Of a stretch of 32,000 bases of DNA, positions 3 through 27,708 are shown one piece after another. The position numbers were made by a program, and so were the translations under genes. Within the stretch, counting starts at the first letter, position 1. Each line of letters opens with the position of its first letter. Below the pieces are notes generated by a model. The model made no database searches. It saw only the letters and a list, made by a program, of their open reading frames with translations, and was not told the origin of the DNA. Source of the DNA: Ruminococcus albus 7 = DSM 20455. GTDB lineage: Bacteria > Bacillota > Clostridia > Oscillospirales > Ruminococcaceae. The stretch lies in contig NC_014833.1 of NCBI RefSeq assembly GCF_000179635.2, positions 1,020,001 to 1,052,000 of the forward strand. Direction: 5' to 3'.

Positions 3-1097
3 ATAGTAGGTGACGAAACTCCTGCTATTTATTGTGGCAAGGGCAATGATAAGATACGCGGCAAGGAATTTGATGACGTGTATATCTATAACCTCGGTGA
101 CGGACATGATATTGTCAGAGATTACACTATATGGGGACGTTCATACGATGAGGTACGCTTCGGCAAGGGTATAACTTCCGATATGCTGTGTGTAAAGGTT
201 GACGGAAATGAAGCAGTTATGTCCATACCCAATACCGAAGATTCCGTCACCATTATAAAGGGCGAGATCGAGCTCTTTACTTTCGTGGACGGAACAAAAC
301 TGGATGAGAGCGAGATCTTCGCAAAGGCAGCCGATCATCACTACTCCGAAACACCTGAGTGTGTATGGACAAATAATGAAGGCAATTACTCTGCAAAATT
401 CGTGTTCGTATGCTCCGACTGCGGTGCAAAAGTAAGCTATGCAGCAGAAGTAGAGTGTGAAGAAGGCGATGACGGTGTTAAGGTATATACCGCCAAAGCG
501 ACTGTTGCAGGCAAGGAACATACAGCTGTATACAAGAAAACTCCTGTATCATATAAAGCCCCAAAGATATCTTATGAGGCTGGCGCAAATTCTGTAAAAC
601 TCAGCTGGACAAAGGTCGATGCTGCTGATATGTACGGTGTATACGGCTATGTAAGCGGCAAGTGGCAGCTGATAAGCGAGAGCAAGGATACTTCTTTCGT
701 GCTTAATTCTCTGAAGGCAGGCACCGAATATAAGGTCGCTGTTGTTTCCAAGATCGACGGCAAGTGGAATAAGGATACCTCAAATGCTGTAACTGTAAAA
801 ACACTGGATCAAGCACAGAGCAGATATCCTTCTGTAACAAGTACACAGTACAATGATAAGTATCACCAGTTCAGACTCAACTGGACAAAGGTAAATGGCG
901 CATCCCAGTACGGTGTCGCTGTTAAGATCGCAGGAAAGTGGAAAGTATACGCATATACCGATGCCAATACCACAACATTCACATCTCCCAAGCTGAAAGC
1001 AGGCAGCACATACGAAATGGTGATATGTGCTAAGGTTAACGGCAAGTGGGACACTTCAAACCTTAATGCAAGAGCATTCAAAGTCACTGTAAAGTGA
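3..1097 (+). CDS. 3' part of a secreted multi-module surface protein; the 5' end lies outside the window. Contains an RTX-like Ca-binding repeat, a Cys-containing ~65-aa module and two C-terminal Fn3-like modules.
   Basis: The frame is open from base 3, with no stop before the track's M at 78. GKGNDKIRG resembles the GGxGxDxUx nonapeptide. Nt 558-803 and 825-1094 encode the module repeated in four other proteins here. TGA at 1095-1097 is followed by a terminator hairpin. Confidence 0.8.
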   Translation: MVGDETPAIYCGKGNDKIRGKEFDDVYIYNLGDGHDIVRDYTIWGRSYDEVRFGKGITSDMLCVKVDGNEAVMSIPNTEDSVTIIKGEIELFTFVDGTKLDESEIFAKAADHHYSETPECVWTNNEGNYSAKFVFVCSDCGAKVSYAAEVECEEGDDGVKVYTAKATVAGKEHTAVYKKTPVSYKAPKISYEAGANSVKLSWTKVDAADMYGVYGYVSGKWQLISESKDTSFVLNSLKAGTEYKVAVVSKIDGKWNKDTSNAVTVKTLDQAQSRYPSVTSTQYNDKYHQFRLNWTKVNGASQYGVAVKIAGKWKVYAYTDANTTTFTSPKLKAGSTYEMVICAKVNGKWDTSNLNARAFKVTVK

Positions 1098-1120
1098 TCA
1101 TGTGTACAAAATAACAGACA

Positions 1121-1165
1121 ACACAACCGACGGTATCTTTTCGGATACTGTCGGTTGTGTTTGTA
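1121..1165 (+). terminator. Rho-independent terminator of the surface-protein gene
   Basis: 17-bp stem ACACAACCGACGGTATC / GATACTGTCGGTTGTGT (one G-U), loop TTTTCG, then TTTGT. Confidence 0.75.
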
Positions 1166-1222
1166 TGACATCATCTCCATAGCGATTTAAATGACAGCTA
1201 TGTAAATAACATATTAAAACTA

Positions 1223-1251
1223 TTGACTTAGTATGATTAAGGTGATATAAT
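1223..1251 (+). promoter_or_regulatory. SigA-type promoter of the thiF-ttcA-desulfurase operon
   Basis: TTGACT (1223-1228), 17-nt spacer, TGA-TATAAT (TATAAT at 1246-1251), about 25 nt upstream of the ATG at 1277. Confidence 0.7.
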
Positions 1252-1276
1252 AGATAAGATATTGAAAGGGGAGTAG

Positions 1277-2095: not shown

Positions 2096-2096
2096 T

Positions 2097-4092: not shown

Positions 4093-4110
4093 ATGAACAA
4101 GGGAAGAATA

Positions 4111-4160
4111 ATGACCGTCAGATCAGGTGCACTCAGCATTTGGTCAGACGGTCATTTTCT
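4111..4160 (+). terminator. Terminator of the sulfur-relay operon
   Basis: ATGACCGTC (4111-4119) pairs with GACGGTCAT (4147-4155), followed by TTTTCT. The loop is long (27 nt), so strength is uncertain. Confidence 0.5.
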
Positions 4161-4334
4161 CTGGAAGCAGAGAATATATCAAAAACATAAACTTGAATAT
4201 CAAATATTTAAAATCTGAATTAAAATGTAATATCATTTAATGAATTTGCTGTGAATGCACAGCGAACTTGTTTCAATATGATTTTATGTTTGAAAATATT
4301 TACATATCGTCAAAGTGTTTGATCACAAAAGCGG

Positions 4335-4363
4335 TTGACATTTGTTTAAAAAAAATGTATAAT
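4335..4363 (+). promoter_or_regulatory. Consensus SigA promoter of the GH5 gene
   Basis: TTGACA (4335-4340), exactly 17 nt, TATAAT (4358-4363). Implies a leader of about 150 nt. Confidence 0.75.
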
Positions 4364-4516
4364 TAAGCAAATGAAAAAATTTATTTTCATTGAAGGAATA
4401 GTTCTGTGACGTGAAAGGCATCCTCATGTCGCAGAGAAAACCGGTAAGCCGTTCATGGCGGAGAAAAGAAATCTCCTGCTGAGGACGGCAAAAACTATCG
4501 AGAGGAGAAATATCCT

Positions 4517-6451
4517 ATGAAGAAGACAATTCAGGGCAGAGTTTTGTCAGTACTTTCTGCTGCGGCTATGGCTGCATCAGTAGCAGCTGCTCTGCCGAAC
4601 ACAGGCATCAAGGCCTCCGCACTTTCCGGACTTGATGCAAAGGGCATCGTTTCCCAGATGAAGATAGGCTGGAACCTTGGTAATACCCTTGATGCTCACA
4701 ATTCAAAGGTACCCTCAGGTTCATCACCCGAGAAGTACGCTACCCAGTGGGGTATGCCCGCACCTAATGCACAGCAGTTCCAGGCAGTAAAGGAAGCTGG
4801 TTTCAACACCGTTCGTATCCCTGTGACCTGGTATGAGCATCTTGAACAGCGCGGCAACAGCTACCATGTAAATGATCAGTGGATGAGCTATGTAAAGCAG
4901 ACCGTTGACTATGCTATCGACCGTGATATGTTCGTTATCCTGAACATTCACCACGAGGATTTCATCAATGTAGGTCAGTTCACCGATAACACCTACTATC
5001 AGGCAGAGATCAAGATGAAGAGCATCTGGTCTGAAGTTGCTGAGACATTCAAGAACTATGACCAGCACCTCATTTTCGAGGGCATGAACGAGCCCCGTGA
5101 GACAGGCAGAGGTTCCGCTATTGAGTGGGGCAGCGGTGATTCCAATTCCTGGAACTACATAAACAGACTGAACGAGACATTCGTAAGAACTGTACGTGCA
5201 CAGGGTTCCAGCCAGAACCGTGAGCGTCTGCTGATGCTTCCCGGCTACTGCGCTTCCAGCAGCTACGATGCTATAAATAATATCGCTATCCCTAACAATG
5301 CAGGCAACGTGGCACTTTCTGTCCATGCGTATGCGCCTTACTTTTTCACAATGGCGAGCGATGCTCAGGCTAACCACAACTTCCCCGGTCAGTCCGGTTG
5401 GGGCGAGGATTATGAGTCTGCACTGAGCGATATGTTCGGTTACTTTGGTCAGCTCCAGTCCATAAAGGGCGCTCCCATAATCATCGGTGAGTTCTCTGCT
5501 TCTGATTTCAACAATACTGAAGATCGTGTAAGATGGGCTAAGTCTTATCTTTCAAAGGCTAAGGAAAAGGGTATCCCCTGCGTTCTGTGGGATAACAACG
5601 TTATAGGCGCAAACGATGGTGAAGCTCACGGTTATCTGAACCGTGCAAACTGCACATGGTACACCAATTCCAAGCCCGTTATCGAAGCTATGATGGAAGT
5701 TTACGACATCAACTCCAACACAGGCGGAGAGGTAAACTCCAACTACATCTGGTCTAAGGTAAATGTTGGTTCTAACTGGATAGAGCTGTTCAAGAGCAAT
5801 GACGGCAGAACTATCGAGGCATGGAAGAACTTCACAGTTGCTGGCTGGAATAACTTCGCTAACGACAACTATGACTTCGTTCTCGTTTATGATTCCGCAA
5901 ATGAGCCTGAGCTGGTTCTCCAGGATGCAAACTATGATTACTGGAACCGTGTATCTTCAAGCGATACCACCGGTACTCCTTTCGTTAAGAAATTCACTTA
6001 TAATGATCTTACAGCTGCTATCGCTAACAGCGGTCTGTCCATGAACGATATGAGCAACCTCTTCATCAGCGCTACTACCAGCAGCATGACAGCTTATGGT
6101 CTGTATGCAGTACCTAAGAACGGTGGTACCCAGATCATTGATCCTGATCCTTATCAGCCTTCAGGCGATACATATCCTACAAATATCAGGGTTAACTACA
6201 GCTCTCAGTATCATCAGATCCAGTTCGTATGGGATGAAGTTCGCAATGCACAGAACTACGGTATCGCAGTTTATCTGGCAGGTAAGTGGAGAGTTCAGAC
6301 TTCCTATATCCCTGCTTCTACCAGAAGCTATGTAACTCCCAAGAACCTGACACCCGGTCTTTCCTATCAGGTTGCTATCGCAGCTAAGGTAAACGGTACA
6401 TGGGATACTGCAAATGCTATCAAGAACGCTGTATATGTTACTGTAAGATAA
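4517..6451 (+). CDS. Secreted GH5 endoglucanase (cellulase) with an unassigned middle module and a C-terminal Fn3-like module
   Basis: Signal peptide present. GWNLGNTLDA, FEGMNEPR (acid/base Glu) and IIIGEFSA (nucleophile Glu) are GH5 hallmarks. Nt 5736-6130 encode a module of about 130 aa with no motif I recognise. Nt 6173-6448 encode the recurrent module. Confidence 0.92.
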   Translation: MKKTIQGRVLSVLSAAAMAASVAAALPNTGIKASALSGLDAKGIVSQMKIGWNLGNTLDAHNSKVPSGSSPEKYATQWGMPAPNAQQFQAVKEAGFNTVRIPVTWYEHLEQRGNSYHVNDQWMSYVKQTVDYAIDRDMFVILNIHHEDFINVGQFTDNTYYQAEIKMKSIWSEVAETFKNYDQHLIFEGMNEPRETGRGSAIEWGSGDSNSWNYINRLNETFVRTVRAQGSSQNRERLLMLPGYCASSSYDAINNIAIPNNAGNVALSVHAYAPYFFTMASDAQANHNFPGQSGWGEDYESALSDMFGYFGQLQSIKGAPIIIGEFSASDFNNTEDRVRWAKSYLSKAKEKGIPCVLWDNNVIGANDGEAHGYLNRANCTWYTNSKPVIEAMMEVYDINSNTGGEVNSNYIWSKVNVGSNWIELFKSNDGRTIEAWKNFTVAGWNNFANDNYDFVLVYDSANEPELVLQDANYDYWNRVSSSDTTGTPFVKKFTYNDLTAAIANSGLSMNDMSNLFISATTSSMTAYGLYAVPKNGGTQIIDPDPYQPSGDTYPTNIRVNYSSQYHQIQFVWDEVRNAQNYGIAVYLAGKWRVQTSYIPASTRSYVTPKNLTPGLSYQVAIAAKVNGTWDTANAIKNAVYVTVR

Positions 6452-6634: not shown

Positions 6635-6666
6635 CCCTTTTAGAAAGAATGGTTGATTATTTCAGA

Positions 6667-8424
6667 TCACTTTACAGTAACTGTAAATGCTCTGGAACCG
6701 ATGTTGGATATATCCCACTCTCCGTTAACCTTAGCGCAAACAACCATCTGATAGGTGCTGCCTGCCTTCAGCTTGGGAGAAGTGAAGTAATTTGTATTTG
6801 CATTGGTGTAAGCCTGTACCTTCCATCTGCCAGCCAGCTTAACAGCTATGCCGTACTGGGTAGCGCCGCTAACCTTGTTCCAGATTACTCTGAACTGGTG
6901 GTACTGATCATTGTATTCTACTTTTGATACGGTAGGATAAGAAGATGTATTGTTTTCAGCATTGGGTGTTACAACGATAGCGTTGGAATCATCCATGTTC
7001 CACTGACCGTTTTTCATAGCAAAAACAACTACCTTGTAGTCAGTGCCAGCTTTCAGATCATTGATAACGTAAGATGTACCTGTGGTCTTGGTGATCATTG
7101 TCCACTTGCCGTTAACCAGACCTGCAACACCGTACTTTTCAGCCTCTTTTATTTCTGTCCATGTGAGCTTTACAGAACCATTACCTTTCTGGTAAGATAT
7201 GGTAGGATTGGAAACTGTATCAAAGAAGTACATCTTAGCACTTGCCAGTACATCGTTGTTCTCACCGATCTCAACAGCATTCCACTTAGCATGTGAACCG
7301 TGGAATGTAACATTTTTTACAGTGGAGTTATTGAATGCCTGAGCACTTATAGTCTTCAGTGTAGAAGGCAGTACGATATCTACCAGTGACTTGCAGCTGA
7401 AGAATGCAGCGCCGTCAATAGCAGTCACACCCTCAGGTATCTCTATGTAGGTTATGCCTGTTGTTGCAAAAGCAGCCTGAGGTATAGCAGTCAGGTTCTT
7501 TGAAAGAGTCACACTGCTCAGAGCATGGCAGTTGGTGAATGTCCTCTTGCCGATAGAAGTAACGCTGTCAGGGATAGTGATGCTTTCAATGAGTTTGTCG
7601 TTTGCAAAAGCATCGTTTCCTATAGTAGTCAGGGTGGAAGGAAGGTCTATATTGGTAATGCCGGAGCAGGAGCCAAAAGCTGAATCGCCGATAGTCTTCA
7701 GACCCTCATTGAAATATATCTTGTTCATGCTGCTGCAGCCGAAAAATGCATATTCACTGATATCTGTAAGGCTAGAGGGCAGAACGATACCTTTAAGGTT
7801 CTCGCACTTGTAGAATGCCTTCTTACCTATAGTAGTGATGTTGCCCTTGAATGTGACATTCTGAAGATATTCGCACTCCTGGAATGCAAAAGGCTCGATA
7901 GAGGTTACATTTTTCGGTATGGTTATAGAAGTAAGACTAGGGCAGTTTTGAAATGCACCTTCACTGATTGCAGTCAGATTATCAGAGAGTATCACAGTGC
8001 TTAGGGACATACAGGTTGCGAAAGCACCGCGTCCGAGAGTTGTTACACTGCTGGGTATCAGAGCTCTTTTCAGATAAGAACAGCTGCAGAAAGCAAAATT
8101 GCCAATCTCTGTAACAGTGCTGGGTATAGAAATCTCTGTCAGAGCGTTATTTTTTATGAAAGCATTATTGCCGATCTTGGTAACTGTCTTGCCGTCTATC
8201 TGAGAGGGGATAGTTACTGTTGAACTGCTGCCTGTATACTTTGTCACAGATACAGTTCCGTCGGAAAGTACTTCATAGTTGAAATCACCGTAAACAGCAT
8301 CAGCATTAGCTGTAACTGCGGTGTCAGCAAATATGCTGCCTATAGCAGTGCCTGGTACGTATGTAGCCGCACTGATAACAGCCAGCACACTTGCCAGTGT
8401 GGACTTCATAATCTTGTTAGCCAT
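6667..8424 (-). CDS. Secreted BspA-type leucine-rich-repeat protein with two C-terminal Fn3-like modules
   Basis: Signal peptide present. About 14 repeats of roughly 23 aa of the IPxSVTxIGxxAFxxCxxL type (LRR_5-like). Nt 6964-7209 and 6670-6939 encode the tandem module pair. AAGGAGA RBS. Confidence 0.9.
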   Translation of the reverse strand: MANKIMKSTLASVLAVISAATYVPGTAIGSIFADTAVTANADAVYGDFNYEVLSDGTVSVTKYTGSSSTVTIPSQIDGKTVTKIGNNAFIKNNALTEISIPSTVTEIGNFAFCSCSYLKRALIPSSVTTLGRGAFATCMSLSTVILSDNLTAISEGAFQNCPSLTSITIPKNVTSIEPFAFQECEYLQNVTFKGNITTIGKKAFYKCENLKGIVLPSSLTDISEYAFFGCSSMNKIYFNEGLKTIGDSAFGSCSGITNIDLPSTLTTIGNDAFANDKLIESITIPDSVTSIGKRTFTNCHALSSVTLSKNLTAIPQAAFATTGITYIEIPEGVTAIDGAAFFSCKSLVDIVLPSTLKTISAQAFNNSTVKNVTFHGSHAKWNAVEIGENNDVLASAKMYFFDTVSNPTISYQKGNGSVKLTWTEIKEAEKYGVAGLVNGKWTMITKTTGTSYVINDLKAGTDYKVVVFAMKNGQWNMDDSNAIVVTPNAENNTSSYPTVSKVEYNDQYHQFRVIWNKVSGATQYGIAVKLAGRWKVQAYTNANTNYFTSPKLKAGSTYQMVVCAKVNGEWDISNIGSRAFTVTVK

Positions 8425-8839: not shown

Positions 8840-9892
8840 TCATTTTGCTGCATTTATGAGTTTTTCAACGCAAGCTTTGGGAGCGTGATGTATATCGAAC
8901 AGCAGGGGATACTGCTTAACAACAGGCGCATTGTCATGTGGAACAAATCCGTCCATCCAGGTGTAGTCATCTGCAACGCCCCATGTTGTAACACAGTCGA
9001 TAACATCGCTGTAGCTGCGGTATATCTCAAACAGCTTCAGGTATATGTCCTCCACCCTTGCGATATCCTCGGGCGAAGAAGCTTTCAGCCTTTTGATATC
9101 CTCCTCCGAAGGCGGAAATACATTGTGTCCGAAGCCTGCCATGATGGATACATCAAGCTCAGTTATATGCAGACGGAGTCCCAGCTGAGCATATACCTCT
9201 ATCGAGCGTTTCAACTCGTCATAATCGGGGCATGAGAAGTAATGCTGCTGCATACCCATGCCGTCGATTCGGCAGCCTTGTTCCTTCAGACGCTTGATGA
9301 GCCTGACTATACGCTCACGCTTTTTCGGATCGCATTCGTTATAATCATTATAGAACAGCTGAGCGTTTGGCGAGTATTTGTCCATAGCTCGGAATGCGGC
9401 TGTTATGAAATCTGCACCGCAAAGCTTGAAGTATTCGCTGCTGCGGTATATAGCTGCATCTCCCTGAGCGCCGTCCTCCACTTCGTCTGTCACAGCCTCG
9501 TTAACAACATCCCATGCGTAAACATCATCGTTATATCTTTCACAAAGCGCCTTTATATGAGCATCTATACGCTGATATATAAGCTCGGGGGAAGCATCAT
9601 GGTCACCGTCCTTGTACATCCATCCACCCGTCTGGTTGTGCCATACGGGCGCATGAGCACGTACTTTTATACCCAGCTTCCTAGCTGTGCTGAATATTTT
9701 GTCTGTTCTTTCAAATGTGAATCTGCCTTCCTCGGGCTCGGTCTCACTGTATTTCATTTCATTTTCAGGCGTAACACTGTTGAAATGCTCACGCAGCACA
9801 TCTTCGTAGCTTTCAATATTGTGGGCGGCAACAGCAGCGCCTATCTTGAAATACTTCTCGTAGCTCTTTGCAAGTGAAAGGATATTGCTCAT
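8840..9892 (-). CDS. GH10 endo-1,4-beta-xylanase, predicted cytoplasmic (no signal peptide)
   Basis: WDVVNEA (acid/base Glu) and HITELDVS (nucleophile Glu). The N-terminus MSNILSLAKSYEKYF is not hydrophobic. GGAGGAG RBS. Confidence 0.92.
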   Translation of the reverse strand: MSNILSLAKSYEKYFKIGAAVAAHNIESYEDVLREHFNSVTPENEMKYSETEPEEGRFTFERTDKIFSTARKLGIKVRAHAPVWHNQTGGWMYKDGDHDASPELIYQRIDAHIKALCERYNDDVYAWDVVNEAVTDEVEDGAQGDAAIYRSSEYFKLCGADFITAAFRAMDKYSPNAQLFYNDYNECDPKKRERIVRLIKRLKEQGCRIDGMGMQQHYFSCPDYDELKRSIEVYAQLGLRLHITELDVSIMAGFGHNVFPPSEEDIKRLKASSPEDIARVEDIYLKLFEIYRSYSDVIDCVTTWGVADDYTWMDGFVPHDNAPVVKQYPLLFDIHHAPKACVEKLINAAK

Positions 9893-10063
9893 GATACTCC
9901 TCCATTTTTAGTTTCGATGTAAAATAAATAGTTTTCAATATAATAACATATTGTTCTCGGATGTTCAAGCGATTCCCGAACAATTGTAGATTTTTTCAAT
10001 TTTCGTGTATAAAACTCATACATTTTCACCATGAACAGTGATATTATGTATATGCAACAAAAT

Positions 10064-10939
10064 TCAGCTGTGCTGTTTGTTCTTCAGCCGGAACTGTTTT
10101 GGCGTCTGATCGCGGTATTTCTTGAAACTGCGTATGAAGTGGCTGCAATCCGCAAAGCCTGTCTTCTGACTTATGAACGTCATATCATGGTCGGTGAAAA
10201 GCAAATATTCTTCTGCCTTGAATATCCTCATGCGCTCGATGTACTCCTTGCAGCTCATGCCGTACTGCTCACGGAACTTCGCTGCAAAGCCCGAATAGCT
10301 CATGTGGCATATCTCGGCTATGTCCGCCACGCGGATATTGTCTTCAAGGCGGCTGTCTATGTATTCGGTGATATTCTCTATGCCGTATATGTCAGCTGAG
10401 TTCACAGGGCATTTGTTCATATCGAGTCCCTGTGTTGTCCATTCCCTAACAATGCCGAATATCAGCCTGTAGATATACGCTCTCATCATTATATCTCTGC
10501 CGTAAAGATAGTGTTCGCCTTCCTTTACGCATTCAGCGAATATCTCTTTGCATTTAAGCCGTTCAGATTGTTCGCGGCTGAAATGTATCTGCATATCATT
10601 TGTACGTGCGTACCGAAGTATAGCTGTTGCCGAAGGCGCATAAGAGGATGTGTTCGGGAATTTTACCGTGTCGAATTTCAATCCTGAAAAGAGTATGGTG
10701 CCGTCGCAGGCAGAATGGATAGAATGCACAGATGACGGATAAAACAGAAAAAGTTCACCCTCAGATACGGTATAGGCTTTGCCGTCGCAGGTCACCGCAA
10801 CTTTTCCGCTAAGTATATATATGAACTCGGCAAAGTAATGCCAGTGCTGTTTTACAGGAAACGGATTTTTTTCGGTATCGAACAGGAAGGTTTCGATAGG
10901 CGAGTTCAGACTGTCTTGTTTTTCAAATAAATTGTTCAT
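10064..10939 (-). CDS. AraC-family transcriptional regulator (cupin sensor plus C-terminal HTH)
   Basis: Cupin-like N-terminal half (HWHYFAEFIYILSG). C-terminal AraC HTH (IAEICHMSYSGFAAKFREQYGMSCKEYI ... GFADCSHFIRSFKKY). The ATG at 10939 has an AAGAGG RBS; the track start at 10963 does not. Confidence 0.88.
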   Translation of the reverse strand: MNNLFEKQDSLNSPIETFLFDTEKNPFPVKQHWHYFAEFIYILSGKVAVTCDGKAYTVSEGELFLFYPSSVHSIHSACDGTILFSGLKFDTVKFPNTSSYAPSATAILRYARTNDMQIHFSREQSERLKCKEIFAECVKEGEHYLYGRDIMMRAYIYRLIFGIVREWTTQGLDMNKCPVNSADIYGIENITEYIDSRLEDNIRVADIAEICHMSYSGFAAKFREQYGMSCKEYIERMRIFKAEEYLLFTDHDMTFISQKTGFADCSHFIRSFKKYRDQTPKQFRLKNKQHS

Positions 10940-11125
10940 GATACCGACCTCTTTTCTGTTCAATGTTTTATAGAATTTTACAATTTATTGGATGATTTGT
11001 TTTGCAAGTTTTAAATATTTGTGGCGACGTTCAGGCAGGTGTTCGATCTTCAGAAGACCGCATATTTTATATAGTATATTATACCATATTATTACAATTA
11101 AATCAATAGTTAAGGAGAGTATTTA

Positions 11126-16545: not shown

Positions 16546-17898
16546 ATGAAAAATAATACTTTAAAGAAAACTGTATGCGCAGCCCTTGCAGGACTTATAC
16601 TTACCATGACAGCCTGCGGCAGTGTGAATGAGAAGACGGACACTGACAGTAAACAGCCTGCGGCAGCAAATGCCGATTCCGAGACTACTCACGAAGCTGA
16701 TATCCCTGCACCTGAAAGAACAAACAGTGCCAAGCCACTTTCTGCCGAAAAGCTGGCAAAGTCAGATTCAGCACCGGATGCGGCTTTCTATGACAGTTAC
16801 AGCGATTATGCGGCAGAACTTTTCAGGCAAAGCTGTACCGAGGATATAAGAAACGGAAAAAATGTCATGGTCTCACCCGAAAGTGTTATGATGGCACTGG
16901 GTATGACAGCAAACGGTGCAAATGGCGAGACTCTTTCACAGATGCAGAAAGCACTTGGCGATATCAGTATAGATGATATCAACACTGCTATGCAGTATCG
17001 TCTTAACAAGTATGCTCAGGATAACGATATCAGTTTCAATGCGGCAAATTCCGTGTGGGTGCGTGATGACGAAAACGGCATTACATTAAGACAGGATTTT
17101 TACGATAAGGTAAAAAGTGCATATAACGCTGATACCTTCGCGCTGCCATTTGATGATGCAGCACTGAATGCTATAAATGGCTGGGTCAAGGAAAATACAA
17201 AAGATATGATTCCCGGCATACTGGACAAAATGGATGATCAGGCAAAGGCGTATATCATAAATGCCATGGCTTTTGAGGGCGAATGGGAAGAAGTATACGA
17301 GGATCACCAGATAAACGAGGATGATGTATTCACGAACAGCCGAGGCGAAGAGGAAACAGTAAGCATGATGTATTCCAAGGAAAACGGCTACTTTGAGGAC
17401 GAGGATACTACGGGCTTCATAAAGTACTACAAGGGCGGAGATTATGCATTCATGGCTATGCTGCCTGCTGAGGGAACCGGGCTTGTTGATTATGTATCGG
17501 GCATTGACGGTAAAAAGCTTTCAAAGCTATGGTCATCTGCAAGCGGTGAAGTAAATGTAAGCATACCAAATTTCAGCTTCGATTATGAAAATGAACTCAG
17601 TGATGAACTCTCAGCTATGGGAATGCCCGCGGCTTTCTCGGATGCCGCTGATTTCTCGGGAATGTCTGATACCGATCAGCTTTACATAAGCGATGTTATC
17701 CATAAGACCCATATTGATGTGGATCGCAGCGGAACAAAAGCTGCAGCTGTTACAGCAGTAGAGATGAAGTGTGCAGGTGTTATGGGGAACGATGAAAACC
17801 GTAAAGAGGTTTATCTTGACAGACCCTTTGCCTATGCTATAATAGATACCGAGAGCGGAACACCTATATTTATCGGTGCTGTAAATACCGTAAAATAA
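16546..17898 (+). CDS. Serpin-family serine protease inhibitor, predicted lipoprotein
   Basis: Signal peptide ending LTMTAC|GS (lipobox-like). Serpin motifs: NVMVSPESVMMALGMTANGANGET, the hinge GTKAAAVTAVE, and LDRPFAYAIID. AAGGAGGA RBS. Confidence 0.88.
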   Translation: MKNNTLKKTVCAALAGLILTMTACGSVNEKTDTDSKQPAAANADSETTHEADIPAPERTNSAKPLSAEKLAKSDSAPDAAFYDSYSDYAAELFRQSCTEDIRNGKNVMVSPESVMMALGMTANGANGETLSQMQKALGDISIDDINTAMQYRLNKYAQDNDISFNAANSVWVRDDENGITLRQDFYDKVKSAYNADTFALPFDDAALNAINGWVKENTKDMIPGILDKMDDQAKAYIINAMAFEGEWEEVYEDHQINEDDVFTNSRGEEETVSMMYSKENGYFEDEDTTGFIKYYKGGDYAFMAMLPAEGTGLVDYVSGIDGKKLSKLWSSASGEVNVSIPNFSFDYENELSDELSAMGMPAAFSDAADFSGMSDTDQLYISDVIHKTHIDVDRSGTKAAAVTAVEMKCAGVMGNDENRKEVYLDRPFAYAIIDTESGTPIFIGAVNTVK

Positions 17899-17967: not shown

Positions 17968-17974
17968 CGTTATA

Positions 17975-20440: not shown

Positions 20441-21833
20441 ATGAATGATATGATCTCCCGAAAATCGCTGACGGTACGTATGCCGGTGCTTCTCACCATG
20501 AGCATACTTATGATACTTCTGTTTGTTCTTGCTGCTGTATTCATCAGATTCAGAGGGCGAATGATAGAAGACTATACCGACATGGGCAAAGGTTTGACTA
20601 ACCTTATGGCTGCCTAGATAGATCCCGATATGGTCGATGAGTATATCGAAAAGAATTTTGAGATGAAAGAATATAACGATGTTCGCAGAAGGCTTGAGAT
20701 GCTGAAGACCAATTCACCGAAGGTGCTGTATATGTATGTTTACAGATTCAAGCGGGACGGTGCTGTAGTCATATTCGATATGGACAGCGAGAATGGTGTT
20801 GCTGATGCGGATGCTCCGGGAGATATCTATCCCCTTGATCCTGAGCTTGAAAAGAACATTGATGATCTTGTGGCAGGAAATGAAACACCTGCGCTGATAG
20901 GCGATACTGAGGACGGTTACCTGCTTACGTACTGCAAGCCTCTGTTCGGTTCGGACGGAAAATACCAATGTCATGTCTGTGTGGACTTCTCGGTTGAAAA
21001 ACTCCACCGTGAGGATATGAGATTTGTACTGGGTACGATGATACTATCGCTTGTGGCAGTAATGGTGATACTTATAGCGGATATTTATATAGTACATCGG
21101 CGCATAGCGGGACCGCTGAACAAAATGAAGCTGGCGACAGACGGCTTTGCCTATGAGAGCAAGGAGGATCATGAGAACAATATCCGCTTAATGGAGGCGC
21201 TGGATATCAGGACAAATGACGAGATAGAGGATATATATCATCTGTTCCTGACGTTCATGAGAAATAATCTTTTATATATGAATCGGCTTGAAAAAGCGAA
21301 TGATACTATTATAGAAAAGGATACACGTCTGGGACAGGTGAGCATGAGGGCTTATTTCGATCCTCTTACAGGAGCGGCTTCAAAGGCGGCTTATGATGAG
21401 ATGTCGGCAGGAACGGAATGGAGCGGGAAAGCGGTTCGCTGTGCTGGTATACGATATCAACGATCTGAAATATATAAATGACAACTATGGGCATAATTCA
21501 GGTGATCTTTATATAAAGGGCTGTTACGGAATACTTTCGGAGGTGTATGAAAGCTGTGTGGTATACCGCATCGGCGGAGATGAGTTCGCGGTAGTGCTGA
21601 TGGATGAGTATTATGACAGAAGGAAAGAGCTGTTTGCAGAGGCGGCGGAAAGATTTGAATACGCAAGGGCTCAGACAGACCGTGAACCCTGGGAGAGATA
21701 TTCAATGGCAGGCGGTATATCCGAATACACAGGATCAGATAAAAGCTATGAAGATGTATTCGAGTGTGCTGACAGGGATATGTATGAGAACAAGGACAGG
21801 TTAAAGAAAAAATACGGTGTTAAACCGAGATAA
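20441..21833 (+). pseudogene. Membrane sensor diguanylate cyclase (GGDEF) disrupted by an in-frame TAG and a +1 frameshift
   Basis: The ATG at 20441 opens a 58-codon TM segment that ends at TAG 20615-20617, in the same frame as ORF 20630-21481. The GGDEF domain starts as DPLTG in that frame (21359) and continues in the next frame (FAVLVYDINDLKYINDNYGH ... RIGGDEF). The switch lies within about 21404-21432. Confidence 0.8.
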
Positions 21834-21860
21834 AAAAGACTGCTCAGGCAGTCTTTTTTA
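21834..21860 (+). terminator. Terminator of the GGDEF gene
   Basis: AAAAAGACTGC TCAG GCAGTCTTTTTT. Confidence 0.85.
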
Positions 21861-22502: not shown

Positions 22503-24845
22503 ATGAAAACAACTGTTTCTAAGCGCATAATAAGCGCTCTTGTTTCCGGTGTGCTGATGGCAACGCCAATAATGTCGGCTGTTACAGCATCTGCTGCTAA
22601 GACACTCACTACGAGCCCGTCACACACACAGGAAGTCGGCTGGTACAATGACTACCACCATGAGATCTGGCAGGCAGATACTCCAAACTCTTCTACAATG
22701 ACACTGCACGACAATGACGGTGGTTTCAGCACACAGTGGAAGTGCGGTCCTAACAACTCGAGAGGTAACTTCCTTGCACGTCGTGGTCTGTACTGGGGCC
22801 TGAATAACCCTAAGACATATAAGGATTATAAGCCTTTCTACTGTGACTACGATTGCAGCTGGTATGCAGGTTCATCCGGTAACTCCCGTATCTGTATCTA
22901 CGGCTGGGCACAGAATCCTCTGGTAGAGTACTACATCATCGAGGACTGGAAGAACTGGTCACCTGCACAGGACGGTTCTGCACAGTACAAGGGTCAGACC
23001 ACTATCGACGGCAGTGTATACAAGGTATATACTACCAGCAGAAATTCTTACACCATTGAAGGCAACAAGAACTTCACACAGTATATAAGCATCCGTCAGA
23101 ACCTGAGAACCAAGGGTACCATCAGCGTTTCCGAGCACTTCAAGGTTTGGGAGTCCATGGGTATGAAGATGGGCAACCTGTACGAAGTTGCTTTCAACGT
23201 TGAAGGCTGGGAGTCCGACGGTCAGGCTGATGTTACTCTGAATATGTATGAGGGCGAAAGTGGCTACCATCCCGATCCCGAGCCGGAGGAGTCGGAGATC
23301 GAAGGTACACTGTACTCAGCTACATTCGAGAACGGCACAAATTACTGGAGCGGCAGAGGTTCTGCTAGTGTAGCATCATCTTCTTCCAAGGCTTATGAGG
23401 GCAGCAAGTCCCTGTATGTAAGCGGCAGAACTGCTAACTGGAACGGCGGCGAAGTAGAAGTCAATACATCTACTTTCAAGCCCGGCAACTCCTACAGCTT
23501 CAGCGCTATGGTAAATCCTGCCGAGAGCACAACTGTTCAGCTTTCCATGCAGTATGATCAGAACGGTACTACAAAGTACACTCAGATTGCTGAGGGTTCC
23601 TGCACAGCAGGCAAGTGGACCAAGCTGGAAAACACTAACTTTACAATTCCTTCGGGCGCATCCAATGTAAAGATGTATGTTGAAGCTCCCGACAGCCTGT
23701 GCGACATCTATGTTGACAGAGCTATAATCGCAGACAAGGGCTATGTTGCTTCCGGTGATACCCCGGTATACAACAATGCTAATGTTCCTTCCAACGTAAA
23801 GATGGAATACAACAGCCAGTACAAGCAGATGAAATTTACTTGGGACGCTGTAAATGGCGCTGACAAGTACGGCATCGCAGTATACCTGGCAGGCAAGTGG
23901 AGAGTTCAGGATTCCAACATCTCCGGTACTTCCTACACTACTCCCAAGGGACTGACACCCGGTATGTCTTACAAGGTAGCTATCGCTGCTAGAGTAAACG
24001 GCAAGTGGGATACTACAGCTGCTATTGACAACTATGTTGTTGTTACGACCAGATCCTACAACAACATTCAGTATCACACACCTTCTAACACAAACACAAA
24101 TACAAACACAAATACAAACACAAATACAAACACAAATACAAACACAAATACAAACACAAACACTAACACAAATACAAACACCAATACTAACACAAACACC
24201 AACAACGGTTACTATGTTGACCCCAACAAGCCTATGGTAGCTATCTCTTTCGATGACGGTACTGCACAGGGTTACTCCGGTCAGAAAATCATCGACGCTC
24301 TCTATAAGAACGGCTTCCGCGCAACATTCTTCTATGTTGGCAACTGGATCGGCAAGCCCGATCAGGTTCGCGATGCTTACAGCAAGGGCATGGAGATCGC
24401 AAACCACACCACTTCTCACCCCAATCTGACTGAGATACAGTCTTACCAGATCCGTTCTGAGTATGACAACTGCGCAAGCAAGCTGAAGAGCATCATCGGC
24501 GCAGAGCCTTCCAAGCTGATGAGACTGCCTTATCTGGCTTCCAACTGGCAGGTACAGCAGACACTGAACGATGTTCCCCTGATCAGCTGCGCTATCGATA
24601 CCCAGGACTGGAACGGTGCTTCTGCATACCAGATCGAGAACACTATCAAGAACGCTGCTAACAACGGTTCTCTGAACGGTGCTATCGTTCTTTGCCACGA
24701 GACTTATGACAACACTGCAACAGCTATGGAGAACGTTCTTCCCTGGCTGAAGTCTCAGGGTTATCAGGTTGTTACAATCTCTGATATGTTCAAGGCTAAG
24801 GGCAAGACCCTGAACGGTGGTCAGGTATACACAAGAGTTTCTTAA
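22503..24845 (+). CDS. Secreted bifunctional xylanase/acetyl-xylan esterase with the layout GH11 - CBM22-like - Fn3-like module - (NT)19 linker - CE4
   Basis: Signal peptide present. GH11: YGWAQNPLVEYYIIEDW and NVEGWESDG. The segment FENGTNYWSGRGSA...SLYVSGRTANWNGG is CBM_4_9/CBM22-like. The recurrent module is at 23784-24053. NodB motifs: SFDDGT, HTTSHP, RLPY, DTQDW, LCHE. Confidence 0.92.
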   Translation: MKTTVSKRIISALVSGVLMATPIMSAVTASAAKTLTTSPSHTQEVGWYNDYHHEIWQADTPNSSTMTLHDNDGGFSTQWKCGPNNSRGNFLARRGLYWGLNNPKTYKDYKPFYCDYDCSWYAGSSGNSRICIYGWAQNPLVEYYIIEDWKNWSPAQDGSAQYKGQTTIDGSVYKVYTTSRNSYTIEGNKNFTQYISIRQNLRTKGTISVSEHFKVWESMGMKMGNLYEVAFNVEGWESDGQADVTLNMYEGESGYHPDPEPEESEIEGTLYSATFENGTNYWSGRGSASVASSSSKAYEGSKSLYVSGRTANWNGGEVEVNTSTFKPGNSYSFSAMVNPAESTTVQLSMQYDQNGTTKYTQIAEGSCTAGKWTKLENTNFTIPSGASNVKMYVEAPDSLCDIYVDRAIIADKGYVASGDTPVYNNANVPSNVKMEYNSQYKQMKFTWDAVNGADKYGIAVYLAGKWRVQDSNISGTSYTTPKGLTPGMSYKVAIAARVNGKWDTTAAIDNYVVVTTRSYNNIQYHTPSNTNTNTNTNTNTNTNTNTNTNTNTNTNTNTNTNTNTNTNNGYYVDPNKPMVAISFDDGTAQGYSGQKIIDALYKNGFRATFFYVGNWIGKPDQVRDAYSKGMEIANHTTSHPNLTEIQSYQIRSEYDNCASKLKSIIGAEPSKLMRLPYLASNWQVQQTLNDVPLISCAIDTQDWNGASAYQIENTIKNAANNGSLNGAIVLCHETYDNTATAMENVLPWLKSQGYQVVTISDMFKAKGKTLNGGQVYTRVS
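24087..24206 (+). repeat. In-frame hexanucleotide/dodecanucleotide microsatellite encoding (Asn-Thr)19-Asn-Asn
   Basis: (AAY ACN) occurs 19 times. It includes five perfect copies of AACACAAATACA at 24093-24152. Confidence 0.95.
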
Positions 24846-24878
24846 TTGATACTCAGATATATCTTATATGTTAATATT

Positions 24879-24914
24879 ACGGAGGAGAGCTTGAAGTTCT
24901 CCTCCGTTTTATTA
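24879..24914 (+). terminator. Terminator of the xylanase gene
   Basis: ACGGAGGAGA / TCTCCTCCGT 10-bp stem, then TTTTATT. Confidence 0.85.
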
Positions 24915-24981
24915 TAAATGTATTGAGATACAGAAAATTCTTTGATTAACTGTGAATATTGTGAAAAATTAACCGAAATCA

Positions 24982-25010
24982 TTGACTAAGCCGAAAAAAT
25001 GTGTTATAAT
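24982..25010 (+). promoter_or_regulatory. SigA promoter of the 842-aa surface-protein gene
   Basis: TTGACT (24982-24987), 17 nt, TGT-TATAAT (TATAAT at 25005-25010). Implies a leader of about 160 nt. Confidence 0.72.
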
Positions 25011-25179
25011 GTAAAAAATATAGCAAATAGAAGTATCCTGCTGATGATAAGGCTCTGCAGTGTAAACAGATAGCTGAACAGGAGCCGTGAACATCGACAG
25101 AAACAAGGGTAAAATGCACAGGTACTGAAAACGGTATATGTGCAGCGTAACGAAAGTTCACGTAAGGAGGAACATCTAA

Positions 25180-27708
25180 ATGACAGAAAATATTACTTGG
25201 AAGAGAGTTACTGCAGGCCTTATGGCACTGGTACTTGCTGCAGGTGCAGTACCTACCGGTCTGGGCGGAGCATTTAAAGACAGGATAGCTGTTGTCGCTT
25301 CCGCTGAGGCAGAAACTGATACTGTCAAGGATACTGTAAAAGAAGAGACAAAAGAAGAAACTGAGATATGGAAGGGAAAAGGCAAGGGCACAAAGACTGC
25401 ACCCTATCTTATATCTTCTGCTGATGAATGGAAACAGCTTGCCGTACTGGTAAACAAGGGCGAAAGTTTCAGCGGTAAGTATTTCAAACTTACAAAGGAT
25501 ATAACAGTTACTGAGATGATAGGCAAGAACGAGCATCCCAACGAGACCGTGAGCCGTCCTTTCTCAGGTATATTTGACGGCAACGGCCGTACTCTTACTG
25601 TTAAGATAGATGAATCTGAAAAGGATGATAAGACCCACGGCGCTGCACCTTTCTGCGGTGTCAAGGATGCTGTTATAAAGAACCTTGTTGTAAAGAGCAG
25701 CATCTACAGCGGCATACATTCTGCAGGTCTTGTAGGTGTATCACTGGGTACTCTTGAGATAAACAATGTACTGGTAGAAGCTGATATCAGCGGTGACACC
25801 CATAACGGCGGACTGGTAGGTCACAGCTTCAATACTGTGATGAAGATAACAAACTGCGGCTTTACCGGAAGAGTGAAGGCATCAGATGTTGCCTGTGCAC
25901 TTGTTGGCTGGTGCGGTCCCGATGCGAATATAACTGTATCTAACTGCCTGATAAACGGCACTATCGCTGATGCAGGCACTGTAAATAATATTGCTGAAGG
26001 TATGGGCGGTGTTGTTACAATAAAGAATGTTTATTCCACACTTGAAGATAAGGGTAATAACTCGATGACTGTAAAGGGCAGTGTTACACCTGTTTCTGAG
26101 ATAAAAGCACCTGAGGCTGTGGAAGAAGAACTTGTATACGACGGTGAGGAGCATGAGCTGATAACCGAAGGCTCTGTAAAGGGTGCGAAGATGGTCTACT
26201 CTCTTACTGTTGACGGAAAGTATACAACTGATATACCAAAGGTTACCAATGCAGGCGAGTACAAGGTATGGTACAAGCTTGAAGGCATGGGCAACTGCAC
26301 AGCGAAGTTTGTAAAGGTAAATGTTGCTAAGGCAGATATAGAGCCTTCTGTATCCGTTGCAAACTGGGCATACGGCGATGAGGCGAGTGTTCCTGCTGTT
26401 GAAGGCAACACCGGCGAAGGCGAAGTTACCTTTGAATACAAGGTGAAGGGTGCTGACGACGAGACCTATACCGATAAAGTTCCGACAGAGGTCGGTGAGT
26501 ACACTGTAAAGGCTACTGTTGCTGAAACTGAGAACTACAACGGCGATGAAGCTTTTGCTGATTTTGCTGTTGAGATAAAGTATACCAGACACGAGGCAAA
26601 GCCTTCATCCTGCAACACTATAGGCAACACCGAGTACTATGAGGGTTCTGACGGAAAATACTATGTGCTTGAAAATACACTTTACGGCGGATACAAGGAG
26701 ATCGAGAAGGATTCCTGGATAATACCCGCAACACATCATCATTACGAAGGTGCTCCCGAGTGGAAGTGGACTGATGATTACAGCACTGCAACAGCAGAGT
26801 TCAACTGCGTTAACGGCGATGCTACCGAGAAGGTAAAGGCTGAGGTAACATCCGATGTCAAGAAGCCTACCTGCACTGAAAAGGGCAAGGCTGTATATAC
26901 TGCCAAGGTTACATTTGAGGGCGAGGAATATACTGATACCAAGACCGAGGTGCTTGAAGCTACCGGTCATTCCTATGGTGAGCCTGTATGGACATGGGAT
27001 AAGAACAATGCAAGTGTAAAGATAGTATGCAGCGAGTGCGGCGATGAGCTTTCAGCTGATGCTAAGATAACTGTTAAGGTGATAAATCCGACTTTTGAAG
27101 CAGACGGTGAGATAGTATACACTGCTGCTGCAACTATTGACGGCAAGGAATATACCGATAAAAAGGTAGTATACACTTCTAAGCTTTCTTCGGATACTAC
27201 ACTTTCCTACGTTCCCGGAAACGGTTCGGTATCCCTGTCATGGACAGCGGTAGATAATGCTGAGAAGTACGCTGTATGCTCTTTTGTAGGCGGCAAGTGG
27301 CGTAAATTTGCTGAGGTAGAGGGTACATCCTACGAGGTCAAGGGTCTTAAGAAGGGTGTAAACTACAAGACCGCAGTACTGGTTTATGCAAACGGCAAAT
27401 GGAGCAGCGATTTTTCAAATGCTATTGGTGTAACACCAAAGTCTGATTTCCCTGTTGCTGATGTTGAAGTATCCGGCAAGAGATTCAAGCTCAGCTGGTC
27501 AACTGTTGAAGGCGCTGACAGATACGGCATAGGCATCTACAAGGATGGCGAATGGGAGCTTCTTGCAAGAGAAGACGGAGATGTTAACAGTGTTATATCA
27601 CCTGAATTTGAAGACGGTACATACAGGATAGCTGTATTTGCAAGAGTGAACGGCGAATGGGATATGAGAAATATTGATTCAAGAGCATTCGATGTTACTA
27701 TAGAATAA
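25180..27708 (+). CDS. Large secreted surface protein: GLUG-motif beta-helix-like region, Ig-like YDG repeats, two Cys-containing modules and two C-terminal Fn3-like modules
   Basis: Signal peptide present. FSGIFDGNGRTL and HNGGLVGHS are GLUG-type motifs. YDGEEHEL...NAGEYKV is an adhesin-type repeat. H-x-Y..P.W.W modules are at 26734-27177. The tandem recurrent modules are at about 27190-27705. AAGGAGGA RBS. Confidence 0.88.
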   Translation: MTENITWKRVTAGLMALVLAAGAVPTGLGGAFKDRIAVVASAEAETDTVKDTVKEETKEETEIWKGKGKGTKTAPYLISSADEWKQLAVLVNKGESFSGKYFKLTKDITVTEMIGKNEHPNETVSRPFSGIFDGNGRTLTVKIDESEKDDKTHGAAPFCGVKDAVIKNLVVKSSIYSGIHSAGLVGVSLGTLEINNVLVEADISGDTHNGGLVGHSFNTVMKITNCGFTGRVKASDVACALVGWCGPDANITVSNCLINGTIADAGTVNNIAEGMGGVVTIKNVYSTLEDKGNNSMTVKGSVTPVSEIKAPEAVEEELVYDGEEHELITEGSVKGAKMVYSLTVDGKYTTDIPKVTNAGEYKVWYKLEGMGNCTAKFVKVNVAKADIEPSVSVANWAYGDEASVPAVEGNTGEGEVTFEYKVKGADDETYTDKVPTEVGEYTVKATVAETENYNGDEAFADFAVEIKYTRHEAKPSSCNTIGNTEYYEGSDGKYYVLENTLYGGYKEIEKDSWIIPATHHHYEGAPEWKWTDDYSTATAEFNCVNGDATEKVKAEVTSDVKKPTCTEKGKAVYTAKVTFEGEEYTDTKTEVLEATGHSYGEPVWTWDKNNASVKIVCSECGDELSADAKITVKVINPTFEADGEIVYTAAATIDGKEYTDKKVVYTSKLSSDTTLSYVPGNGSVSLSWTAVDNAEKYAVCSFVGGKWRKFAEVEGTSYEVKGLKKGVNYKTAVLVYANGKWSSDFSNAIGVTPKSDFPVADVEVSGKRFKLSWSTVEGADRYGIGIYKDGEWELLAREDGDVNSVISPEFEDGTYRIAVFARVNGEWDMRNIDSRAFDVTIE

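Follow-up and report, generated by a model that had tools for sequence, protein, structure and literature searches.

The eight modules that recur in the window, by which we mean the whole 32,000-nucleotide stretch of Ruminococcus albus 7 DNA analyzed here, are in all probability members of CBM37, a tag of about 90 residues with an Fn3 fold that sits on secreted R. albus proteins and holds its carriers at the interface between cell and fibre. The modules are real, the CBM37 name is right, and the family was already known; the family membership, fold, distribution and architectures of these eight copies are established here. Each of the eight segments in the original prediction is stop-free in translation (Table 1), and when all ORFs of the window were searched with an HMM derived from these segments, eight modules in five ORFs were recovered, with envelopes at most 6 nt off the predicted boundaries and no further copy in any ORF. 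In the alignment of roughly 90 columns, ten positions are invariant across all eight (W20, A26, Y29, G37, W39, G60, Y63, G73, W75 and V87). The high local density that had been claimed is borne out by published counts: strain 7 has 77 reported modules, of which 8 lie within 32 kb of a 3.69-Mb chromosome.

Table 1. CBM37 modules of the U (upstream), T (divergent terminal) and E (conserved terminal) sub-types in the window, and the ORFs that carry them.
Feature	Position	Strand	Basis
ORF1 upstream module, U-type, CBM37_1-like, most Fn3-like	558..803	+	translation; HMM envelope aa 184-268
ORF1 terminal module, T-type CBM37	825..1094	+	translation
GH5 cellulase module, single, C-terminal, E-type CBM37	6173..6448	+	translation; GH5 domain
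LRR protein upstream module, U-type	6964..7209	-	translation; Pfam fn3 26.4 bits
LRR protein terminal module, T-type CBM37	6670..6939	-	translation
Xylanase/esterase module, internal, E-type CBM37	23784..24053	+	translation
842-aa protein upstream module, U-type	27190..27441	+	translation; HMM envelope aa 670-754
842-aa protein terminal module, T-type CBM37, most divergent	27442..27705	+	translation
ORF1, partial RTX-like surface protein	3-1097	+	
GH5 cellulase ADU21423 (Rumal_0896)	4517-6451	+	
BspA-type LRR protein ADU21424 (Rumal_0897)	8424-6667	-	LRR_5 309.8 bits
GH11-CBM22-CBM37-CE4 xylanase/esterase Rumal_0908	22503-24845	+	GH11, CBM_4_9, Polysacc_deac_1 domains (Pfam)
842-aa secreted protein ADU21435	25180-27708	+	

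Three sub-types are present rather than the two first proposed, and within the window they are arranged as originally described, with single E copies on the glycoside hydrolases and U-T tandems on the non-catalytic proteins. The three upstream copies and the terminal copy of the 842-aa protein lack the Y..Y(H/K)Q motif that had been taken to be common to all copies. The ORF1 and LRR terminal copies, estimated by eye at about 75% identity, are in fact 71% identical, and the 842-aa terminal copy is 33% identical to that of ORF1. Repeats are also visible in the DNA itself: the GH5 and xylanase modules share 76-80% nucleotide identity, the ORF1 terminal copy forms a 275-nt inverted repeat with 6665-6939 of the LRR gene (75%), and the ORF1 and 842-aa upstream copies match at 77%.

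Exact protein matches for the window are ADU21423, ADU21424, ADU21427 and ADU21435. That the carriers are secreted is supported for the four complete proteins, which have signal-peptide-like N-termini. ORF1 is truncated at the left edge of the window; a full-length homologue (P0219, 1078 aa) has RTX/HCBP repeats. The description of the module as an appended domain likewise fits four of the five carriers, where it is terminal, and not the xylanase, where it is internal and followed by CE4. These placements recur elsewhere: three loci (L054, L073 and L079) have orthologues of the 842-aa protein with the same U-T end, and the xylanase orthologue at L079 has its module at the same internal position. 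The GLUG label once given to the 842-aa protein found no Pfam GLUG match at E ≤ 0.1. GGLVG-like motifs can be seen by eye at aa 180-245 of this protein, possibly those of a divergent relative.

The assignment to CBM37, a guess in the original prediction, is upheld by homology to modules of R. albus 8, including that of its GH48 enzyme, and by the publication of three of the window's genes as CBM37 carriers. The GH48 cellulase of R. albus 8 is the founding carrier, and published carriers include Cel48A, Cel9B, Ra3055 and Ra1589; we equate the GH48 in our sample (L072) with Cel48A because R. albus 8 has one GH48 with CBM37 (Dassa 2014). In BLASTP searches against R. albus 8 modules, expect values ran from 1e-11 to 1e-53, far beyond chance, with overall identities of 67-77% for the E copies, 35-59% for T and 30-52% for U. 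Against the C-terminal module of the GH48 enzyme, the E copies reach 67% (1e-43 and 1e-44), the T copies 35-48% (1e-14 to 1e-27; 35-51% with GH9 included) and the U copies about 30% (1e-11 to 1e-13), and values against the GH9 and GH5 modules are similar, at 68-73% for the E copies against GH9. Taken singly, the GH5 module has 67% identity to the GH48 module of R. albus 8 and 76% identity to the terminal module of an R. albus 8 GH5, and the xylanase module is 67-73% identical to the GH48/GH9 modules. For the terminal copies of ORF1, the LRR protein and the 842-aa protein the same comparison gives 42-47%, 48-51% and 35-38% (the last at 1e-14 to 1e-17), and the LRR copy is 54% identical to one R. 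albus 8 T module. Among the U modules of R. albus 8, that of a GDSL protein is 49% identical to the ORF1 upstream copy, and that of a GH74-like enzyme is 52% identical to the upstream copy of the 842-aa protein.

Pfam has no CBM37 model, and there the modules match fn3 alone. As isolated modules, three of the eight pass the fn3 cut-off of 25 bits (ORF1 upstream, 28.3; LRR upstream, 26.4; the xylanase copy, 29.9), and the other five score 17.6-21.4 bits or have no match; most terminal copies stay under the cut-off, at 15-20 bits. An AlphaFold model of the GH5 module (pLDDT 94, pTM 0.83) contains strands A-G of a seven-strand Fn3 beta-sandwich; its top 50 Foldseek matches, at TMq 0.58-0.75, consist entirely of Fn3 domains or monobodies, with the best PDB matches at a TM of about 0.7, and a profile of the module sequences likewise found only Fn3 chains among structure chains. 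A model of the LRR tandem is confident for each of the two domains and weak for the linker. We know of no solved structure for CBM37. The fold, the Pfam matches and the 23,930 proteins drawn by a mixed profile, mostly large multi-Fn3 proteins, would suit the view that the modules are ordinary Fn3 spacers or linkers that bind no ligand themselves, a role often proposed for the Fn3 domains of bacterial glycoside hydrolases. We regard this as very improbable for the modules as a group, and U-type copies are plausibly of the spacer kind. Terminal modules stand at the extreme C-terminus, with nothing left to space; the E copies are 67-77% identical to modules of R. albus 8, including modules of published CBM37 carriers; a Cel5G module binds cellulose by measurement; aromatics beyond the Fn3 core (GKW, NGxWD and Y..YHQ) are conserved in a family-specific manner; and 70% identity is kept across unrelated carriers.

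The CBM37 reading is also supported by what has been published on these genes and their relatives. Rumal_0896 was listed as 'GH5 CBM37', Rumal_0897 as an fn3 protein with CBM37 and Rumal_0908 as GH11 CBM22 CE4 CBM37; all three are Sec-predicted and were induced 4.6- to 7.9-fold on cellulose, with values of 5.15-fold for Rumal_0896 and 4.59-fold for Rumal_0908 (Christopherson 2014). The architecture GH11-CBM22-CBM37-CE4 was given for strain 7 under YP_004104068, and the strain was credited with 77 CBM37 modules, 13 tandems and CBM37 on non-catalytic proteins (Dassa 2014). A role of the tag beyond CAZymes, once offered as an extension because of its LRR and GLUG-like carriers, was already on record in both studies, one of which counted 34 CBM37 proteins with no catalytic domain, nearly half of them with LRRs (Christopherson 2014). 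Fused to a phosphorylase, CBM37_2 of Cel5G bound PASC with a Kd of 1.73 uM and raised adsorption 5-fold, and papers that cite Ezer 2008 report attachment to the cell wall. Removal of CBM37 from Ra3055 gave higher activity on swollen cellulose, so the role of the tag cannot simply be to enhance activity. On its own, the internal copy of Cel5G reportedly does not bind.

R. albus fuses CBM37 to its secreted proteins, mostly at the C-terminus, where it takes the place of a dockerin. Judging from experiments reported for close homologues, a terminal module probably binds polysaccharides across a broad spectrum (cellulose, xylan, chitin, plant cell walls), as well as the cell-wall carbohydrate of R. 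albus itself. Such dual binding would hold enzymes and surface proteins where cell and fibre meet. For the eight copies described here, and above all for T and U, binding is suggested by homology and the literature. The upstream copy of a tandem is most likely a spacer or affinity enhancer and not an independent binder; its binding of carbohydrate is uncertain, since Pfam treats U copies as ordinary fn3 domains, at 26-28 bits. It has been speculated that the tag works instead as a dockerin analogue, assembling an extracellular complex through protein-protein contacts with LRR carriers as partners (Christopherson et al. 2014). CBM37 does stand where orthologous enzymes of R. flavefaciens have dockerins, LRRs, a class of protein-interaction repeat, occur in about half of the carriers that have no catalytic domain, and cohesin-domain proteins also end in CBM37. 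No partner is known, though, published data show binding to carbohydrate and cell walls, and the idea was raised as a mere possibility by its authors; as originally predicted, dockerin-like calcium-binding loops are absent, and none of the five proteins matches a Pfam dockerin family such as Dockerin_1 at E ≤ 0.1. We consider assembly of this kind highly unlikely.

The architectural rules drawn from the window did not survive a wider sample, in which 165 modules were taken from 80 related genome loci together with 38 loci of metagenomes and a global library of proteins. The genome collection contained 217 confirmed places, and the best 80 came from R. albus strains, Ruminococcus MAGs and one uncultured bacterium. 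Single copies had been assigned to enzymes and tandems to non-enzymes, but U-E or U-T tandems occur on GH5, GH9, GH74-like, PL1, GH43 and GH2-like enzymes, and strain 7 itself contradicts a restriction of tandems to non-catalytic proteins with Rumal_2448, published as GH9-CBM3-CBM37-CBM37 (Christopherson 2014). Many LRR proteins, for their part, have a single terminal copy. U modules preceded a terminal copy in 28 of 28 cases among 138 module-bearing ORFs, and ends from U-U-T up to U-U-U-U-T are present in the global library. The upstream copy is a distinct, more Fn3-like variant, never found without a terminal copy in the sample. In the literature on CBM37 consulted here we did not find the E, T and U sub-types named or the constant position of U before a terminal copy recorded.

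Sub-type does not define carrier class either. T, expected on non-enzymes, is present in a T-seeded metagenome sample on GH98-CBM6, GH43-CBM6-CBM22 and GH5 enzymes, and E, expected on enzymes, is found on at least 45 non-catalytic proteins, among them 25 DUF285/LRR proteins, 10 members of a cohesin-like family of 432 aa, and CotH. Enzymes make up about 11% of T carriers versus about 56-61% of E carriers, and only this statistical tendency is left. These distributions weigh against a functional split inside CBM37, in which E would be a 'shuttle' between polysaccharide and cell and T, usually after one to four U copies, a dedicated cell-wall anchor of surface proteins such as adhesin-like LRR, RTX-like and cohesin proteins and autolysin-like enzymes. 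Such a split would be in keeping with the genome sample, where no GH carries T and its carriers are BspA-LRR proteins, unknown families, Cthe_2159 and one GDSL esterase, and with the global library, where U-U-T ends are found on CHAP and endolysin-like (ELLD/Amidase_5) proteins and one cohesin protein, classes in which cell-wall-binding domains are normally present. E also forms one tight cluster (at least 55% identity, mean 70%) and T many divergent ones. Average linkage, however, gives no clean separation of E from T, and the module of GH98 orthologues is E in some genomes but T in one other, which suggests that the two are interchangeable. We regard the split as unlikely.

Compared with known systems, the modules differ in nothing essential from CBM37, described as the 'X' modules of R. 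albus 8 Cel48A, Cel9B and Cel5G. They share its species group, its length of about 90-100 aa, its mostly C-terminal place on secreted GH, CE and PL enzymes and non-catalytic proteins, and its tandem dyads (compare Cel5G CBM37_1/CBM37_2), and the T and U copies of the window are divergent members. With Fn3 (PF00041) they share the strand-B Trp and strand-F Tyr motif, which aligns to tenascin and fibronectin; terminal modules differ by extra aromatics (Y..YHQ, GKW and NGxWD), a long C-C' hairpin and, ahead of the final strand, a short helix, and CBM37 differs by its documented role in carbohydrate and cell-wall binding. The type I dockerin/cohesin system of R. flavefaciens and clostridia is analogous, in that a C-terminal tag localises GH48, GH9, GH5, GH11 and GH74 enzymes at the cell surface, but the dockerin is unrelated in fold and sequence, CBM37 has no duplicated calcium-binding loops, and the dockerin binds a scaffoldin cohesin whereas CBM37 binds carbohydrate or the cell wall directly. 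SLH, CWB/choline-binding and SH3b domains are also C-terminal, are sometimes repeated and retain LRR adhesin-like and CHAP/amidase proteins on the wall, a use that suits the U-U-T ends of CHAP and endolysin-like proteins. These domains belong to other folds and families, however, and CBM37, in addition, binds plant polysaccharides and sits on dozens of CAZymes.

Eight modules of about 90 residues are borne by five carriers: ORF1, which is incomplete and extends past the left end of the window, a GH5 protein (Rumal_0896), a leucine-rich repeat (LRR) protein (Rumal_0897), a xylanase (Rumal_0908) and an 842-aa protein. All eight translate free of stops where the original prediction had placed them, and a profile built from them and run against every stop-to-stop ORF of the window returned these eight modules, spread over five ORFs, and no others; their envelopes differ from the predicted limits by a few bases. 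The alignment spans ~90 columns, ten of which are invariant (W20, A26, Y29, G37, W39, G60, Y63, G73, W75 and V87). DNA repeats independently pair the GH5 with the xylanase module (76-80% at the nucleotide level), the ORF1 terminal with the LRR terminal copy (a 275-nt inverted repeat, 75%) and the upstream copies of ORF1 and the 842-aa protein (77%).

The single GH48 of R. albus 8 is the founding CBM37 carrier. Compared with its C-terminal module, the conserved terminal copies of the GH5 protein and the xylanase (sub-type E) are 67% identical (E-values 1e-43 to 1e-44), the divergent terminal copies (T) 35-48% (1e-14 to 1e-27) and the upstream, Fn3-like copies (U) about 30% (1e-11 to 1e-13). Chance similarity is ruled out by these identities together with the ORF-wide profile and the DNA repeats. 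Drawing on the R. albus 8 identities, the published gene lists and the distribution in our genome scan, we assign all eight modules to CBM37 on sequence grounds. The family name in the original prediction was thus correct: the E copies reach 67% against the GH48 module, and three of the genes have been published as CBM37 carriers.

A sequence look-up matched window proteins exactly to ADU21423, ADU21424, ADU21427 and ADU21435 of Ruminococcus albus 7, encoded on a contig of 3,685,408 bp. All four complete carriers have signal-peptide-like N-termini, and the three window genes listed by Christopherson et al. (2014) are all Sec-predicted. All three are induced on cellulose in that study (4.6- to 7.9-fold), Rumal_0896 (Cellulase, GH5 CBM37) 5.15-fold and Rumal_0908 (endo-1,4-beta-xylanase, GH11 CBM22 CE4 CBM37) 4.59-fold. 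Pfam resolves the carriers as GH5 with a weak CBM65-like stretch and the module, BspA-type LRR_5 with a tandem, GH11-CBM_4_9-module-CE4, and, for the 842-aa protein, a tandem with no other confident domain. Several details of the prediction need amending: the Y..YHQ motif, thought common to all copies, is missing from the three upstream copies and the 842-aa terminal copy; the module described as an appended tag is internal in the xylanase; and the GLUG label of the 842-aa protein finds no Pfam detection. A dockerin on the carriers was considered and rejected, with no Pfam match.

Further features are collected in the table. In the xylanase, the internal CBM37 is linked to CE4 by a Thr-Asn run. 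For the R. albus 8 GH5 Ra1831, of which the window GH5 gene may be an orthologue, Iakiviak (2016) described a novel CBM in the unknown region that corresponds to the CBM65-like stretch. Directly upstream of the U module in ORF1 and the 842-aa protein lies a Cys-containing segment of ~70 aa (HHY..W.W...C..C...YTAKAT..G.E.T; BLASTP E-values 4e-8 and 3e-7) that matches no Pfam family. Since a full-length ORF1 homologue in the global library (P0219, 1078 aa; N-terminal region 97% identical over 185 aa) bears RTX nonapeptide and HCBP_related Ca-binding repeats, we regard ORF1 as an RTX-like surface protein with a U-T end.

Positions of individual features in the window and at other sampled loci
Feature	Location	Coordinates	Strand	Remarks
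ORF1 part aligned with P0219	window	3-557
Cys-containing segment, ORF1	window	324-524		one copy
GH5-to-CBM37 region	window	5861-6097		GH5 aa 449-527; CBM65_1 23.4 bits, sub-threshold (cut-off 25)
GH10 xylanase	window	8840-10963	-	350 aa; adjoins AraC-family regulator; without CBM37
Serpin	window	16546-17898		450 aa; Pfam Serpin, 282 bits; amid CBM37 genes
Overlapping ORF pair	window	20630-21833	same strand	283 aa and 146 aa; second is GGDEF C-terminal part only
Thr-Asn run	window	24051-24228		~27 dipeptides; 12-nt-period DNA repeat
Cys-containing segments, 842-aa protein	window	26728-27156		two copies
~430-aa CBM37-ended family	L118	143-1282
~430-aa CBM37-ended family	L026	4972-6267
GH98-CBM6 protein	L083	3085-6270
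GH98-CBM6 protein	L067	3124-6270

A profile search of PDB sequences found no solved CBM37 structure and returned only generic Fn3 chains (best E 4.5e-8). The GH5 module was modelled with AlphaFold2 from a 40-sequence alignment, which drew its depth from the 44 short fragments (62-161 aa) that the eight-module profile had retrieved in a word-indexed search of proteins. The model (pLDDT 94, pTM 0.83) has seven strands, with a short helix preceding the last, and its top 50 Foldseek matches in the PDB are all Fn3 domains or monobodies, at TMq 0.58-0.75. The model of the LRR tandem (pLDDT 91, pTM 0.54) shows two confidently predicted domains with a weak linker between them. In the alignment, the strand-B Trp and strand-F Tyr motif coincide with the Fn3 core. 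As modelled, the CBM37 fold is confirmed as Fn3, and the family-specific motifs GKW, NGxWD and Y..YHQ represent a candidate binding face.

The original prediction held that single modules mark glycoside hydrolases and tandems mark non-catalytic, adhesin-like proteins. A genome scan seeded with four terminal modules gave 217 confirmed places, of which the best 80 comprise R. albus strains (KH2T6, AR67 and 8), Ruminococcus MAGs and one 'uncultured bacterium' record, strain 7 being absent; all ORFs of these 80 loci and the window yielded 165 full modules in 138 ORFs. Because this sample is biased to E-type, a T-seeded metagenome scan (38 loci) was added. An exhaustive search with a mixed profile gave 23,930 matches dominated by giant multi-Fn3 proteins, and re-scoring with sub-type HMMs found true terminal modules in 23 of the 150 top proteins. 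Among the 165 modules the primary split is between U and terminal modules, with E and T not cleanly separated. In the E-biased set of 138 ORFs, a single C-terminal E predominates (98), followed by U-E (15), U-T (13), single T (8) and internal E (3), and U never stands alone (0). By Pfam, the U-E representatives are borne by enzymes of the GH5, GH9 (some with CBM3), GH74-like (BNR/sortilin) and PL1 families, and the single T representatives by BspA-LRR proteins, so the rule is false in general; strain 7 itself contradicts it with Rumal_2448, a GH9-CBM3-CBM37-CBM37 protein (Christopherson et al. 2014). The tandem is a fixed hetero-dyad, U followed by a terminal module, and the pattern of singles on enzymes and tandems on adhesins is a local coincidence. 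Architectures in the global representative library include U-U-T, U-U-U-T, U-U-U-U-T and U-T-U-T, on carriers such as CHAP proteins, endolysin-like proteins with ricin domains, a cohesin protein and the RTX-repeat ORF1 homologue.

The proposal that sub-type tracks protein class survives as a tendency. It fails in both directions, with E on LRR proteins and T on GH98, GH43 and GH5 enzymes. The 98 E-single proteins fall into 18 families, the largest being DUF285/LRR (24 members); CotH, F5/8C and DUF4832 families also occur, alongside enzymes of GH10/11, GH26/CE3, GH98, GH5, GH9, GH48, GH53, GH43 and PL1, and clustering at ≥55% identity gives one 115-module cluster that spans all E-single carrier families. 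T modules in the metagenome scan lie mostly on LRR and unknown proteins, and also on GH98-CBM6, GH43-CBM6-CBM22 (U-T) and GH5 (single and U-T). With orthologues counted separately, enzymes make up roughly 7 of 63 T carriers versus about 65-71 of 116 E carriers. GH98-CBM6 proteins whose N-terminal regions are up to 92% identical have a T-type end in one metagenome contig and an E-type end in the genome-sample family, which suggests swapping of the terminal module.

A polysaccharide-utilization island or operon was rejected, the neighbors being unrelated housekeeping genes. Interspersed with the five carriers are genes for ThiF, a PP-loop ATPase, a cysteine-desulfurase-like aminotransferase, a MATE transporter, a MerR/TipAS regulator, an M29 peptidase, an isochorismatase and DXS, besides the GH10 xylanase, serpin and split GGDEF genes of the table. 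Local enrichment is real but modest, with 8 of the 77 reported modules within 32 kb of the 3.69-Mb chromosome. Tighter paralogous arrays exist elsewhere (e.g. L006, L009 and L084; also L087 and L088), in which three to four BspA-LRR or DUF285/LRR genes each have their own CBM37, the tag being carried along by local gene duplication. The serpin in the window has neither CBM37 nor dockerin. The GH10 xylanase lacks a signal peptide, as its catalytic domain begins at residue 6, and probably acts on xylo-oligosaccharides inside the cell. The overlapping ORF pair probably represents a diguanylate cyclase gene broken by a frameshift. Such a gene would account better than a tRNA for the ADU accession and Rumal locus-tag numbers being out of step by one; a tRNA search found none.

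Published work on homologues shows that CBM37 binds a wide range of polysaccharides and attaches to the cell wall of R. albus. The Cel5G CBM37_2 module, fused to a phosphorylase, binds PASC with a Kd of 1.73 µM. The internal Cel5G copy alone reportedly does not bind and is said to enhance binding of the dyad, with which the fixed order of U then terminal module is consistent. Given homologue binding, the affinity of the Cel5G CBM37_2 module and the U order, it is most likely that the terminal CBM37 holds each of the five window proteins at the cell/fibre interface and that U serves as a spacer or enhancer; binding by the eight window copies we infer by analogy.

It is also conceivable, if rather unlikely, that CBM37 comprises three functionally distinct modules. 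The highly conserved E may be a shuttle between diverse polysaccharides and the cell surface; the divergent T types may mainly anchor non-CAZyme surface proteins (BspA-LRR, RTX-like, CHAP and endolysin-like autolysins, cohesin proteins) to the cell wall; and U, canonical-Fn3-like and never alone, may extend or strengthen the terminal copy when one to four are stacked before it. Were this so, ligand would be predictable from sub-type. Three global-library proteins (P0171, P0173 and P0197), of the CHAP-domain and endolysin-like (ELLD/Amidase_5) kinds and some with ricin lectin domains, have a U-U-T end, and this ending on peptidoglycan hydrolases is consistent with cell-wall binding. The ~430-aa E-single family (432 aa; 10 genome-sample copies) includes one member with a cohesin domain (36.6 bits), and another library protein, P0161, is cohesin plus U-U-T. 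CBM37-anchored cohesins could tether R. albus dockerin enzymes, as hinted at by Dassa (2014). Binding experiments could take their lead from the remaining E/T bias and from the occurrence of U-U-T at the ends of autolysin-like and cohesin proteins.

Earlier publications already cover the CBM37 system, its occurrence on these genes and in tandem, and its LRR carriers. In strain 7, Dassa et al. (2014) counted 77 CBM37 modules and 13 tandems, found the module on non-catalytic proteins as well and reported the GH11-CBM22-CBM37-CE4 architecture, and Christopherson et al. (2014) reported 34 non-catalytic CBM37 proteins, almost half of which have leucine-rich repeats. Since the role of CBM37 was worked out from 2004 to 2014 and print already describes three of the five genes as encoding cellulose-induced CBM37 proteins, our finding adds no new system. 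Its value lies in confirming the Fn3 fold by modelling, recognizing the tandem as a fixed hetero-dyad, defining E, T and U, and exposing the single/tandem rule as a local coincidence, within the system by which R. albus, a major degrader of cellulose in the rumen that lacks a true cellulosome, holds its enzymes at the cell/fibre interface.
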